Virus record (IMG/VR): IMGVR_UViG_2654588054_000003
Length of the DNA stretch: 64,000 bases
Reading direction: 5' to 3' (one strand)
DNA from: a virus
Lineage: Duplodnaviria; Heunggongvirae; Uroviricota; Caudoviricetes
Shown here: piece after piece, positions 6,001 to 12,000 of the stretch
How the letters are laid out: each line of letters starts with the position of its first letter
Numbering within the stretch: the first letter of the stretch is position 1
Program-made: the position numbers

Positions 6001-9000
6001 TGATAACAGAAAGGCCGGGAAATACCCAGCCTCGCTTTGTAACGGAGTAGACGAAAGTGATCGCGCCTACCCGGATATTATCGTGAGGATGCGTCATCGC
6101 CATTGCTCCCCAAATACAAAACCAATTTCAGCCAGTGCCTCGTCCATTTTTTCGATGAACTCCGGCACCATCTCGTCAAAACTCGCCATGTACTTTTCAT
6201 TCCGCTCAATCACGACATAATGCAGGCCTTCACGCTTCATGCGCGGGTCATAGTTGGCAAAGTACCAGGCATCTTTTCGCGTCACCCACATGCTGTACTG
6301 CACCTGGGCCATGTAAGCCGATTTTATTGCCTCGAAACCACCGAGCCGGAATTTCATGAAATCCCGGGAGGTAAACGGGCATTTCAGTTCAAGGCCGTTG
6401 CCGTCACTGCATAAACCATCGGGAGAGCAGGCGGTGCGCATACTTTCGTCGCGATAGATGATCGGGGATTCAGTAATATTCACGCCGGAAGTGAATTCAA
6501 ACAGGGTTCTGGCGTCGTTCTCGTACTGTTTTCCCCAGGCCAGCGCCTTAGCATTAACTTCCGGAGCCACACCGGTGCAAACCTCAGCCAGCAGGGTGTG
6601 GAAGTAGGACATTTTCATGTCAGGCCACTTCTTTCCTGAGCGGGGCTTTGCTATCACGTTGTGAACTTCTGAAGCGGTGATGACGCCGAGCCGTAATTTG
6701 TGCCATGCATCATCCCCCTGTTCGACAGCTCTCACGTCGATCCCGGTACGCTGCAGGATAATGTCCGGTATCATGCTGCCACCTTCTGCTCAGTGGCTTT
6801 CTGTTTCAGGAATCCAAGAGCTTTCACTGCTTCGGCCTGTGTCAGTTCTGACGATGCGCGAATGTCGCGGCGAAATATTTGGGAACAGAGCGGCAATAAG
6901 TCGTCATCCCATGTTTTATCCAGGGCGATCAGCAGAGTGTTAATCTCCTGCATGGTTTCATCGTTAACCGGAGTGATGTCGCGTTCTGGCTGACGTTCTG
7001 CAGTGTATGCAGTATTTTCGACAATGCGCTCGGCTTCATCCTTGTCATAGATACCAGCAAATCCGAAGGCCAGACGGGCACACTGAATCATGGCTTTATG
7101 CCGTAACATCCGTTTGGGATGCGACTGCCACGGCCCCGTGATTTCTCTGCCTTCGCGGGTTTTGAATGGTTCGCGGCGGCATTCATCCATCCATTCGGTA
7201 ACGCAGATCGGATGATTACGGTCCTTGCGGTAAATCCGGCATGTACAGGATTCATTGTCCTGCTCAAAGTCCATGCCATCAAACTGCTGGTTTTCATTGA
7301 TGATGCGGGACCAGCCATCAACGCCCACCACCGGAACAATGCCGTTCTGCTTATCAGGGAAGGCGTAAATTTCTTTCGTCCACGGATTAAGGCCGTACTG
7401 GTTGGCGACGATCAACAATGCGATGAACTGCGCATCGCTGGCATCGCCTTTAAATGCCGTCTGGCGAAGAGTGGTGATCAGTTCCTGTGGGTCGACAGAA
7501 TCCATGCCGACACGTTCAGCCAGCTTCCCAGCCAGCGTTGCGAGTGCTGTACTCATCCGTTTTATACCTCTGAATCAATATCAACCTGATGGTGAGCAAT
7601 GGTTTCAACCATGTACCGGATGTGTTCTGCCATGCGCTCCTGAAACTCAACATCGTCATCAAACGCACGGGTAATGGCTTTTTTGCTGGCCCCGTGGCGT
7701 TGCAAATGATCGATGCATAGCGATTCAAACAGGTGCTGGGGCAGGCCTTTTTCCATGTCGTCTGCCAGTTCTGCCTCTTTCTCTTCACGGGCGATCTGCT
7801 GGTAGTGACGCGCCCAGCTCTGAGCCTCAAGACGATCCTGAATGTAATAAGCGTTCATGGCTGAACTCCTGAAAATGGCTGTGAAAATATCGCCCGCGAA
7901 ATGCCAGGCTGATTAGGAAAACAGGAAATGGGGTTAGTGAATGCTTTTGCTTGATCTCAGTTTCAGCATTAATATCCATTTTTTATAAGCGTCGACGGCT
8001 TCACGAAACATCTTTTCATCGCCAATAAAAGTGGCGATAGTGAATTTAGTCTGGATAGCCATAAGTGTTTGATCCATTCTTTGGGACTCCTGGCTGATTA
8101 AGTATGTCGATAAGGCGTTTCCATCCGTCACGTAATTTACGGGTGATTCGTTCAAGTAAAGATTCGGAAGGGCAGCCAGCAACAGGCCACCCTGCAATGG
8201 CATATTGCATGGTGTGCTCCTTATTTATACATAACGAAAAACGCCTCGAGTGAAGCGTTATTGGTATGCGGTAAAGCCGCACTCAGGCGGCCTTGATAGT
8301 CATATCATCTGAATCAAATATTCCTGATGTATCGATATCGGTAATTCTTATTCCTTCGCTACCATCCATTGAAGGCCATCCTTCCTGACCATTTCCATCA
8401 TTCCAGTCGAACTCACACACAACACCATATGCATTTAAGTCGCTTGAAATTGCTATAAGCAGAGCATGTTGCGCCAGCATGATTAATACAGCATTTAATA
8501 CAGAGCCGTGTTTATTTAGTCGGTATTCAGAGTCTGACCAGAAATTATTAATCTGGTGAAGTTTTTCCTCTGTCATTACGTCATGGTCGATTTCAATTTC
8601 TATTGATGCTTTCCAGTCGTAATCAATGATGTATTTTTTGATGTTTGACATCTGTTCATATCCTCACAGATAAAAAATCGCCCTCACATTGGAGGGCAAA
8701 GAAGATTTCCAATAATCAGAACAAGTCGGCTCCTGTTTAGTTACGAGCGACATTGCTCCGTGTATTCACTCGTTGGAATGAATACACAGTGCTTATTCGT
8801 ACTAATAAAATACCCAATTTTCTGTTTCTTGGTTGTGTCCAAAGTTATATTCAATATCTGGTGTTGATGTATCAATATTCTTCATACCATCAACAAGAGT
8901 TGATACAACAGCCAAATCTTGTTTGATTCTCATTAAATGGTATTTCTTCCGGCGCAATAAACTTTCAATGGCAAGTTTCTTCGTTGGGAATGCAAAAGAT

Positions 9001-12000
9001 CTTTCTGCATTTTTTGCTACTTTCTTAATTGCATATCTATTTCTCCTTTGTTTCCATTCCTGTAACCACTGATTTGGTGCTGGTTTAAAATTAACAATCC
9101 AATGCGCAGGAACCAACCATGCATAATGCTCTGTCTGATGAAAAGCTATATATTGAAGTGCGAATATTTTTATCCCATCTTCTTCAACTGTCGCCTGGAA
9201 TCTCCAGAAAACAGGCATTCCATCATGTTCAGTTTCTGATTCAGGAAAAGGTACGCTCCATGATTTTGTCATATCTCACCTCAAATAAGTGGTTTGCTGC
9301 CTAATTTCATTTTCTGGCGACCAACACAAGTCACCTCGCCGTCAGTTGTTTTGATTTCCGGTAGCCTGCCGCGTAAATGGCTACGTTTGGAAGACATACA
9401 CCAGTTTCTGGTTGCTTATGTCCAAACTCATTCGCGTACACAATGGCCGCTCGCTCCAGATTGCGTCTGTATTCTTTCTGTTGCCAGATCACGTCCTGTG
9501 CCATGAACTTAATTGGCTTAGCGTCTTCTATGCGCTCAGGCGTTTCGTGAGTACCTTTAGCCTGAATCTGCGCTCTGCTTAGAGTAGGGCGGTGTAATAC
9601 TTCTGAACTTATTGCTTCTTCGCGGGCCAGTACGCCGTTAGCTAATGCCTTTGCCTTTAAACGCTCACGACGACGAGAACGTGAATTGCCTTTGAACTGA
9701 GTTCTGCGTGTCATATAGACCTCCTGATGAACTTTGGTGGTGTGGTAGGTGGGAGACCCATTTCGACCTGTTTCGGCCTACTTCAATTCGGCAATAGTCC
9801 CGCAGGCCTCGCCGCTTTACGTGCGACATATTCCCGTCCATGAACCCTTCACCACACCCCAAAGTTCACTTTGGTTATTGCGCTTTGTCAGCGCCGTAGA
9901 TTCATATTCGAATCGTTGTATATTCACCGCCCTGGTGAGTAATGCGTCCTGCTGACGACGATAATAATGAACCAATAGTTCGACATTATCAAGAACTATT
10001 GGTACGAATTTTGGTGATTTATTAACTCTACGAAGTATGATTCTGATATATAAGGAAATTTATTTTTGAAAATGTGGCTGATGAAGGTTATGCGGCAGGG
10101 ATCATAACTGCATGGTTTAGCGAGTTACATCAATAAATACAATTGGTTATGTTTTTTAGGTGGGCGAACGTGAGGCAAAGAAAACCCGGCGCTGAGGCCG
10201 GGCTAGATTTTAAAGTATTTATCTTTTAGAGATGTAGATGTAAAACTTTTCGCCTTTGAAAATTTTTTGTCATCAGAAGGGCTTATGAACTCATCTTTTT
10301 TGTAGGGAACCGCTAATGCTGCATCACGTCTGCGAGGCAGCTTGCTTACTTCCTCGCGCTTTTTCATGATCAGTTATCCTTTAATAACCTATACAGTTTT
10401 GTAGGGGTACATCCTGAGGATATTGTTAAGTTCGTAGCACGCCTTTTCCGCCCATCATCGTATAAACGAAAACCAGTAGTAGACGAATTTTCTGCGTCAA
10501 AAACTATAGACAGTATAGCGTCCCCAGACTTTTTTTGCCATTCGCATGTGCCGTTAGTTGGTTTCGTCATCTGTAGACGCCAGTCAAGAACGCCATCACT
10601 TATAGCTGAGAGATCGTTTAGTACATCTAGTACGGATTGATATCTTTCATTTGGATCTACATGAATGCATTTGTTCACTATTGTTATTAATTTTTTATGT
10701 ATATGGGGAGGATACTCTTTTAATGGATAGCAGCCATTAATTATCGACTCTCTGAGTTGTTCAATCGTGCTAAATGCAGATCTTTCTCTTTCAAAATTAT
10801 CATGTCCAACACACATTCTATATATGGTTAATCCTGCCTGATATATGTCATATGTGAAATTATAATCATTTGTTGATAAAGAAAAATATTCCGGTGGCAC
10901 ATGAAAATGATATCCAAACTCAGGCGCAGCTCTCGATTCCTCATTGACTAACTGAGATAATCCAAAGTCAGATAGCATGGCCTCATTTCTGTTTGATATC
11001 ATAATGTTATTAGGTTTTATATCAAAATGCATAAGACCTTTTGAGTGTATATGATAAAGTCCACTTAAAAATTGAATGGAATACCGTATTATCTCCCTGC
11101 TTGTAAGATTATTTTTTTTCATTAATTGGTTTAGCGAACCATTATGATAAAATGGCATGGCTATATAGATATTGCTCTCACATTGAGCAGCATACTGAAC
11201 TTGCACAATATTTGGATGTGCATGTTTATAGAGAAGCCTTGCTTCATTAAAGTAGTCGTCGTGGTTAGTGTTTTCTTTTTTTTCTATTTCTTTAATCACC
11301 AAGTCATGAGCTAGGTGTCTGTCATGAGCCAGATATACTTTTGAAAAACAACCCTGTTCTTCTAGATCACTAATCCATTCGAATTCTACATCAGCTCTTT
11401 TGTATGGAGTTAGCATCCCCTTACCTCCGCAGATAGTGCAGCCAAAACAGCTTCATTTGTTTCAGTTGTAAAACCAGAATTATCGATTCCATTTATATTG
11501 CGGTGTGACTTCAATATTTCTTTATACTCGATCTCTGTTAGGTTCAATGATGATTTCATGCCAGATTTTCTAATAGTGTAATATTTTCTTACATCACTGC
11601 TTGAAAATGCTTCTTGAATAACAGCTTCTATATAAAGGCGGTCAATGCTAAGATTATCAGAGTTTGATTCAGTAACGCGTATGGCAGCTAATTCAACATT
11701 ATATAAATTAAGAATGTCGAGGATGTTATTTCTCACATATTTTAATTTTTCTGGTGTGTCTAAGGTCGAAGGTATTTTAATAACATCAACACATTTGAGT
11801 GCAGACTCATTAGTGCAATATACAACAAAAGATGTAACTTTGGGCGCCGCTCTAACACCTAGTATTCTCATTTTTTATATCCTATTTTAGAATCAGGCCG
11901 CATCTCTGCGACCATCCATCATCCAAACGTCTCTTCACTCATCCGAAGAAGCAGCAATCCGGGTCAGCACGCACAAGCTCAAGCGCATCAGTCAGCGAAA

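Follow-up and report, generated by a model that had tools for sequence, protein, structure and literature searches.

Evidence for a conserved early gene occupying the ral slot between N and the PreS/tL2a block in a 933W-like lambdoid phage sequence

The sequence analyzed here, hereafter the window, is a stretch of 64,000 nucleotides from the IMG/VR virus record IMGVR_UViG_2654588054_000003 (Caudoviricetes). On its minus strand, an uninterrupted ATG-to-stop open reading frame (ORF) of 156 amino acids is located at 8802–9272, between ea10 (8283–8651) and the antiterminator gene N (9331–9714); both the extent and the placement of the ORF had been called correctly in an original prediction made from the sequence alone. 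That prediction described an unknown AT-rich gene at the sieB/ral position, where lambdoid phages usually carry superinfection-exclusion or anti-restriction morons. Our comparisons of phage and prophage sequences strongly support a more exact description, in which the ORF occupies the slot that holds ral in other phages, with the leader in front of it and the 3' block behind it both being the same. Taken jointly, it is very likely that the ORF is a genuine protein-coding gene under purifying selection, that the slot boundaries are placed correctly, and that the elements downstream of it are the lambda terminator tL2a and the small RNA (sRNA) PreS. What the encoded protein does is a more tentative matter; the reading that we favor, while giving it somewhat less than an even chance, is an early lytic host-takeover or counter-defense factor that acts via a basic surface on nucleic acid or on an acidic host protein.

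The slot was surveyed by megablast of window positions 8652–9330 against 5,426 complete E. coli genomes. Its flanks were present in 2,240 of these and the ORF in 563. The region has the conserved flanks and unrelated intervening genes of an accessory region: the other prophage cargo consists of Ral, either alone or accompanied by two small ORFs, an Nmad5-family protein, and four unrelated ORFans of 83, 96, 147, and 149 amino acids. For the upstream junction, prophages carrying ral, the 83-amino-acid ORF, the 149-amino-acid ORF, or the ORF studied here were aligned. All have the 3' terminus of N in common, as well as a leader of 58 nt, which occupies 9273–9330 on the minus strand of the window and contains the Shine-Dalgarno sequence GAGGTGA, and homology among the prophages with differing cargo ends exactly at the cargo ATG. 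For the downstream junction, prophages with ral, Nmad5, or the 83-amino-acid ORF were aligned together with lambda and HK97; behind the cargo, all have the same block of 118 bp, and the homology breakpoint is again exact (8792/8793). Because homology ends at the cargo ATG, cargo exchange appears to involve units that run precisely from ORF to hairpin, placed behind a translation-initiation region that all share. The proposed sieB/ral position is therefore upheld by the leader and downstream block shared with ral prophages, and also by lambda itself, where the N-to-ea10 interval holds sieB, orf28, and ral; the same interval in Sf6 holds gene 36, ral, and gene 34.

The accessory regions described by Silas et al. 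(bioRxiv 10.1101/2023.04.06.535777) have the same architecture, in which conserved flanks enclose cargo that varies, a known anti-restriction gene among it. One gene from the ral-containing accessory region, orf184, triggers the gop-beta-cII abortive system (bioRxiv 10.1101/2023.04.06.535777). We considered orf184 as a possible match for the ORF and rejected it; the orf184 model begins MEALVVERSEDGYWT and is a different protein (supplementary file 32). It represents another cargo type from the same ral-region neighborhood.

As far as the ATG, the leader and Shine-Dalgarno sequence of lambda ral are identical to those of the ORF, and so is the PreS/tL2a block behind the gene; both genes lie on the same strand, in the early left operon between N and the tL2a block. 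The two proteins, however, are different: Ral has 66 amino acids compared with 156, no sequence or profile similarity was found between them, and their folds are unrelated. Profile comparison with hhalign returned a probability of 0.14% for the ORF against Ral and 0.7% against SieB, and comparisons with Nmad5, two other slot occupants, and an integrase arm-binding domain were all negative. A narrower version of the reading that we favor would make the protein a specific type I anti-restriction factor and direct Ral analogue, which we consider unlikely. The leader, start position, and downstream block that the ORF has in common with ral in other prophages fit such a role, as does its early, promoter-proximal position. 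The ORF and ral sets also barely overlap, since the ORF is found mostly in Shiga-toxin (Stx) phages and ral mostly in Salmonella and other Escherichia phages, with just two Stx records, a contrast drawn from the organism names of the phage records. Against direct analogy are the dissimilarity to Ral, a size more than twice that of Ral, and the heterogeneity of the other slot occupants. In addition, the ORF protein is basic, unlike DNA-mimic anti-restriction proteins such as Ocr and ArdA, which are acidic.

The block downstream of the cargo is non-coding, and its 118 bp are 100% invariant in lambda, HK97, 933W, and four E. coli prophages, even though the flanking genes differ. It was found in 325 phage records and in all 2,240 of the 5,426 E. 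coli genomes counted above, and window positions 8672–8792 are 99.2% identical to lambda 33925–34045. The Sf6 record labels the homologous site "tL2A" and the block "bsq4; boundary sequence." In lambda, the locus between ea10 and ral encodes the Hfq-bound sRNA LPR1/PreS, which is ~88 nt long, is processed to ~68 nt, and has tL2a as its 3' end; PreS is made only in the lytic cycle, when it up-regulates host dnaN (bioRxiv 10.1101/2024.10.31.621285). Region 8672–8792 combines identity to this lambda locus with a GC-rich hairpin and a poly-U end. From the lambda identity, the alignment, and the preprint, we place PreS/LPR1 at 8672–8759 on the minus strand, with approximate ends that were set by length from the terminator. 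A terminator scan detected a terminator-like hairpin at 8678–8699 on the minus strand with a T-run reaching ~8672; together with the Sf6 annotation and the preprint, this identifies 8672–8699 (minus strand) as the intrinsic terminator tL2a (stem GCCCTC/GAGGGC plus T6), the 3' end of PreS. An inverted repeat with 17-nt arms at 8755–8771 and 8776–8792 forms a 12-bp stem in the RNA fold, and the resulting hairpin (8755–8792, minus strand), located by repeat search, alignment, and folding, begins 10 nt after the ORF stop codon and, as the leading part of the invariant block, marks the downstream edge of the slot. The RNA fold of the block has a z score of −5.6, and an Rfam search of the block matched no family.

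The original prediction had the ORF bracketed by a terminator (8672–8697) and a 9-bp inverted repeat (8760–8787). Both elements exist, the repeat being larger than reported, but both lie downstream of the stop codon and neither can be counted as part of a gene cassette, as they are located in the conserved backbone. They very likely correspond to lambda tL2a and the PreS block, which occupy the same position in lambda, between the slot and the next backbone gene, as they do in the window. The block comes after ral in lambda and after the ORF in 933W, where the sRNA is recognized here from sequence alone. The hairpin at 8755–8792 coincides with, or lies slightly upstream of, the position estimated for the 5' end of the 88-nt PreS, and it may act as an RNase processing determinant for that end, releasing the sRNA from the cargo mRNA.

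The ORF protein (18.6 kDa, pI 9.1) is 100% identical to L0079 of phage 933W (AAD25424.1) and 99.4% identical to gp45 of HK97 (AAF31125.1), both annotated since 1999–2000. The genes for these proteins have the same neighbors as the ORF, with N upstream and the tL2a block downstream, and no difference was seen. The protein also matches the PHROG 1636 hidden Markov model (E = 2.7e-112), with residues 1–156 aligned to profile positions 1–156 of 156. The gene is therefore unknown in function but not in identity, and the matches name it without explaining it: the 933W and HK97 entries have no function assigned, PHROG 1636 is annotated as function unknown, all sources label the protein as hypothetical or as a prophage protein, and literature searches on HK97 gp45, L0079, and 933W yielded nothing about this gene. 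As originally noted, there is no recognizable motif. Pfam, NCBIfam, and PADLOC searches of the protein returned no significant family, nor did Pfam searches of 52 family members. The sole PADLOC match, to Cas1_II (E = 0.018, 12 bits, 45 residues), was not significant.

Several lines of evidence argue that the ORF is a functional gene. A strong Shine-Dalgarno sequence precedes its start codon at 9270–9272 (GAGGTGAGAT-ATG). The ORF is carried by 83 phage records as well as by the 563 E. coli genomes, and its exact sequence is present on at least 1,000 contigs. Homologues at 55%–85% identity were found in Pectobacterium, Brenneria, Rosenbergiella, Cronobacter, Symbiopectobacterium, and a Salmonella phage, and the alignment of these cross-genus homologues contains 40 invariant columns. 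In pairwise codon comparisons, synonymous sites were saturated (pS 0.8–0.9) with pN at 0.10–0.25, and dN/dS was 0.08–0.17 for the pairs in which dS could be measured. A profile scan of genomes with the close-homologue alignment found seven loci. An exhaustive profile search found 87 representatives at the 50% clustering level, which define a wider family comprising proteins of 130–155 amino acids and corresponding to PHROGs 13631 and 25384. The uniformly "hypothetical" annotations and the lack of a domain could be taken to indicate a chance reading frame or a decaying, functionless remnant. This explanation is already refuted by the conservation analysis and has a negligible probability: it would have to accommodate low dN/dS with saturated synonymous sites, columns invariant across genera, the strong Shine-Dalgarno sequence, a confident predicted fold (pLDDT 95.5), and the 87 wider-family representatives. 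A lack of conservation in related prophages had been named among the grounds for rejecting the original prediction; the ORF is widely conserved. Separately, IS629 interrupts the region in two Stx phages, Stx2a_F422 (AP012531.1) and JLK-2012 (JQ347801.1), and in JLK-2012 the protein match ends at residue 138 of 156. These interruptions suggest that phages can do without the gene, at least where maintenance of the prophage is concerned.

The ORF and N run in the same direction, 58 nt apart, and a scan for promoters and terminators between the two genes found no promoter-like and no terminator-like site. The first terminator that the scan detected downstream of the ORF is tL2a. The promoter scan was a crude consensus match, which a weak or non-sigma-70 promoter may escape. 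Upstream of N, the scan located a pL-like promoter (TTGATA, 17-nt spacer, CATTAT) at 9964–9992 on the minus strand, just upstream of the nutL site annotated in 933W, and this promoter is the presumed source of a transcript over N and the ORF. In the expression pattern that we propose, the ORF and N would be transcribed jointly from pL in the opening minutes of infection or induction; the ORF would be silent in a lysogen in which the pL operon is repressed by CI, and it would have PreS as the 3' end of its mRNA. Its expression may not need antitermination. Because no promoter of its own was found and the protein has no transmembrane segment, the ORF is best viewed as an early pL gene, neither moron nor exclusion gene.

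The term moron, as applied in the original prediction, thus needs qualification. The ORF does differ in composition from its neighbors, as morons do, and its AT-richness relative to the Red genes was confirmed: GC is 35.7% and GC3 is 26.8%, compared with 50%–52% and 55%–62%, respectively, in gam, bet, and exo. A moron in the strict (Hendrix/Juhala) sense is nevertheless not supported, because the terminator is a backbone element present whatever the cargo, and the leader is likewise part of the backbone and shared with other cargo; no private promoter was found in the crude scan either.

The exclusion half of the original prediction fares worse than the positional half. A superinfection-exclusion or prophage defense gene expressed from the lysogen, in the manner of SieB or Rex, would agree with the location of lambda sieB in the same interval, with the AT-rich, foreign-looking composition of the ORF, and with the presence of other lysogen-type cargo, such as stk, in the 933W region beside the immunity genes. 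We nonetheless consider it very unlikely. The ORF shares its strand with the pL operon and lacks a promoter-like site of its own, whereas lambda sieB is on the opposite strand. No plus-strand ORF overlapping 8802–9272 matched a PHROG, which leaves no sieB-like gene antisense to the ORF. The protein has no transmembrane or hydrophobic segment (maximum 19-residue Kyte-Doolittle value of 0.56), its PADLOC match is at noise level, and it has no similarity to SieB. On sequence grounds, it therefore shows none of the features expected of a SieB-type gene, namely similarity, hydrophobicity, and a promoter of its own opposite pL. Finally, relatives of its predicted fold occur in many phages, several of which we take to be virulent and so to have no lysogen to protect. 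Strand, promoter, lack of membrane character, and these relatives together make an exclusion function improbable. Apart from the bracketing, the original observation was largely right.

The ORF protein, which is soluble, has acidic ends (residues 1–60 and 131–156) and a very basic center (residues 75–125, with 15 lysines or arginines and a pI of 11.4). A first AlphaFold model, built from 20 close homologues, had a pLDDT of 59.5 and was too uncertain to use; a model from 52 sequences, including distant relatives, reached a pLDDT of 95.5 and a pTM of 0.82. In this model, which has an alpha/beta fold, strands at residues 19–30, 33–46, 50–55, and 83–86 and short helices at 56–61 and 66–74 precede a long helix of 33 residues (98–130), and an ordered C-terminal tail bears a conserved NFGHNxETExWxF motif. 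Residues conserved across the wide family include R24, G33, T47, K84, K87, R91, F93, A94, K98, A101, R108/K109, H112, and R115. Many of these are basic and are placed by the model on strand four and on the N-terminal half of the long helix, which suggests a conserved basic surface that binds nucleic acid or an acidic partner.

The remote-homology searches that had been proposed as a check revealed no solved relative. Sequence-profile searches of the PDB with two alignments gave only coiled-coil noise, and the best Foldseek match of the model in the PDB had E = 1.5. Among predicted viral structures, there were 12 fold matches with E < 1e-3, all of them uncharacterized proteins, from phages of Erwinia, Achromobacter, Delftia, Rhizobium, Sinorhizobium, Tenacibaculum, and Cellulophaga; we presume that several of these phages are virulent. 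With matches among viral structures and none in the PDB, the fold appears to be phage specific and widespread, without a solved relative. No helix-turn-helix (HTH) or other known DNA-binding domain was detected in the protein. The N-terminal three-stranded sheet of the model has a weak topological likeness to the small beta-sheet domains of the Tudor, KOW, PWWP, and SH3 types. A strand leading into a helix that opens with T-K-x-x-A recalls the AP2 and integrase arm-type DNA-binding domains, and no significant structural or profile match to these was obtained.

The gene order around relatives of the ORF is variable. Two divergent lambdoid prophages retain the order cI, N-like gene, and ORF homologue. 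In Salmonella phage NX263 (vB_SpuS_NX263) and the related contig L020, the homologue is the first gene of an early operon, and in Vibrio phage PvVp04 a distant relative comes after a cro-like gene. These varied operon positions indicate an early-operon accessory gene that moves between accessory slots and is not tied to N. The PvVp04 relative (loci L013/L011) is in an operon with pRha, YopX, and Nmad5, the last of which is also slot cargo in E. coli. In a Brenneria alni prophage, a DNA polymerase III theta homologue (L024:2684-2935; Pfam E = 6e-33) lies directly upstream of the ORF homologue. The theta homologue, Nmad5, and the dnaN-targeting PreS offer thin hints of a replisome or DNA-modification theme. 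In NX263, a 178-amino-acid product annotated as "DNA polymerase III beta subunit" (L010:5365-5901) was considered in the same connection and set aside, as it has no Pfam match and its L020 counterpart is below threshold (E = 0.0045). With only the Brenneria theta homologue and PreS remaining, the replisome theme was judged too thin to build on.

The shared ral slot, the early position, and the patchy distribution are the basis for favoring a host-takeover or counter-defense factor, and the occurrence of the fold in phages that we take to be virulent fits a lytic-cycle function. Under this reading, the protein would be a functional alternative to Ral in phages without ral, and would be neither a lysogenic-conversion moron nor a superinfection-exclusion protein. 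Several points weigh against it. The functional assignment is inferred from sequence, and profile, structure, and hhalign searches found no similarity to any characterized anti-defense, DNA-binding, or RNA-binding family. Guilt by position is weak because most other slot occupants are also without known function. Searches by peptide, DNA, and phage name did not find the ORF in those parts of the supplements of two large screens of accessory genes (10.1101/2023.04.06.535777 and PMC12373910) that were available to us; it was perhaps not among the genes assayed there, or the sequences may not be stored in those files. A weak or non-sigma-70 promoter belonging to the ORF, or Rho-dependent termination between N and the ORF, would be compatible with the scan result. 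The gene is also not always promoter proximal: in three Pectobacterium/Brenneria prophages, the homologue is at the far end of the operon, on the operon strand and directly upstream of xis-int. Lastly, relatives are found among replication and recombination genes, including those for RecT, AAA_24, the DNA polymerase III theta homologue, and a ParB-like HTH protein, and such neighbors would fit a role in phage DNA metabolism equally well.

That role is the most serious competing explanation. The protein could be a small DNA- or RNA-binding accessory factor for phage replication, recombination, or early transcription, possibly working with PreS and not aimed at host defenses; this is possible, if on the unlikely side. 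The basic conserved surface is consistent with it, as are the genes found near the relatives, which also include Sipho_Gp157, DUF3799 exonuclease-like genes, and a replication initiator; the AAA_24 ATPase among them is Sak4-like. The theta homologue immediately upstream in Brenneria, the post-cro position of the distant PvVp04 relative, and the probable sharing of a transcript in 933W and HK97 with PreS, whose target dnaN encodes the host beta-clamp, point the same way. On the other hand, the ORF can be swapped with Ral, Nmad5, and ORFans, and it is present in just 83 of the 325 PreS-carrying phage records, so that approximately three quarters lack it; a gene that is swappable and missing from most PreS-carrying records is not a core replication or regulatory function. 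The IS629 insertions in the region of two Stx phages and the truncated JLK-2012 match also argue against such a role, as do the lack of an HTH or other known DNA-binding domain and the lack of Pfam support for the NX263 beta-subunit annotation.

Returning to host takeover and counter-defense, a broader proposal can be put forward as a tentative possibility. L0079/gp45 may be the founder of a widespread, phage-specific fold family without a solved relative, and may act within minutes of infection to neutralize a host defense or reprogram a host nucleic-acid machine, for example the replisome, perhaps in concert with co-transcribed PreS raising DnaN. The N-to-PreS interval would then be a plug-in socket for early counter-defense genes in lambdoid phages, including Stx phages.

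The wider surroundings of the ORF are those of an Stx phage, the window being essentially 933W. Over the 1.8 kb of window positions 8200–10000, identity is 99.9% to Shiga-toxin phage 933W, and it is equally high to a large number of Stx1 and Stx2 phages. The 933W annotation was transferred to the window by adding 266 to the record coordinates. In the leftward, minus-strand direction, the order is pL, nutL, N, L0079, ssb/ea10, cIII, kil, gam, bet, and exo. The leftward N-utilization site nutL maps to 9880–9946 (933W annotation 9614–9680). N, directly upstream of the ORF, encodes 127 amino acids, and ea10, the next gene downstream, encodes 122 amino acids and is labeled ssb or DUF2528 in annotations; both assignments come from the ORF list and the 933W annotation, and both genes are on the minus strand. 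Between pL/tM and cI, positions 10203–11871 of the minus strand form a second AT-rich island, with a GC content of 35% and a GC3 of 26%–28%, resembling the ORF in composition. It contains L0081 (10203–10367), stk for a eukaryote-like Ser/Thr kinase (10370–11416), and L0083 (11410–11871). Elsewhere in the window, Rfam matches at the gathering score were obtained at 24737–24996, 23080–23328, 19690–19887, 60179–60353, 62975–63063, and 8165–8223. The families matched were the adjacent STnc100 and anti-sRNA AsxR; three tRNAs; C4 antisense RNA, isrK, and c4-a1b1; sok antitoxin RNA; sRNA-Xcc1; and the lambda cIII thermoregulator.

As a hypothetical ORF, the gene has been on record for 25 years. What is new is the exact anatomy of the slot, the recognition of PreS and tL2a in the flanking elements, the evidence for purifying selection, and a confident fold model without a solved relative. 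If the protein is a minor accessory of phage DNA metabolism, then the finding is an ordinary one. The exact edges of the slot offer a simple means of collecting, from thousands of prophages, other early cargo genes that could then be screened for function. For genetic work on the gene itself, HK97 is a safe system, as it carries no toxin. Most sequenced 933W-like Stx1 and Stx2 phages have the ORF, as do roughly one in ten complete E. coli genomes, and after induction its product is probably one of the earliest phage proteins to be made. If it does act in counter-defense or host takeover, it would add a structurally new family to the anti-defense repertoire and would help to explain the host range and spread of Shiga-toxin phages.

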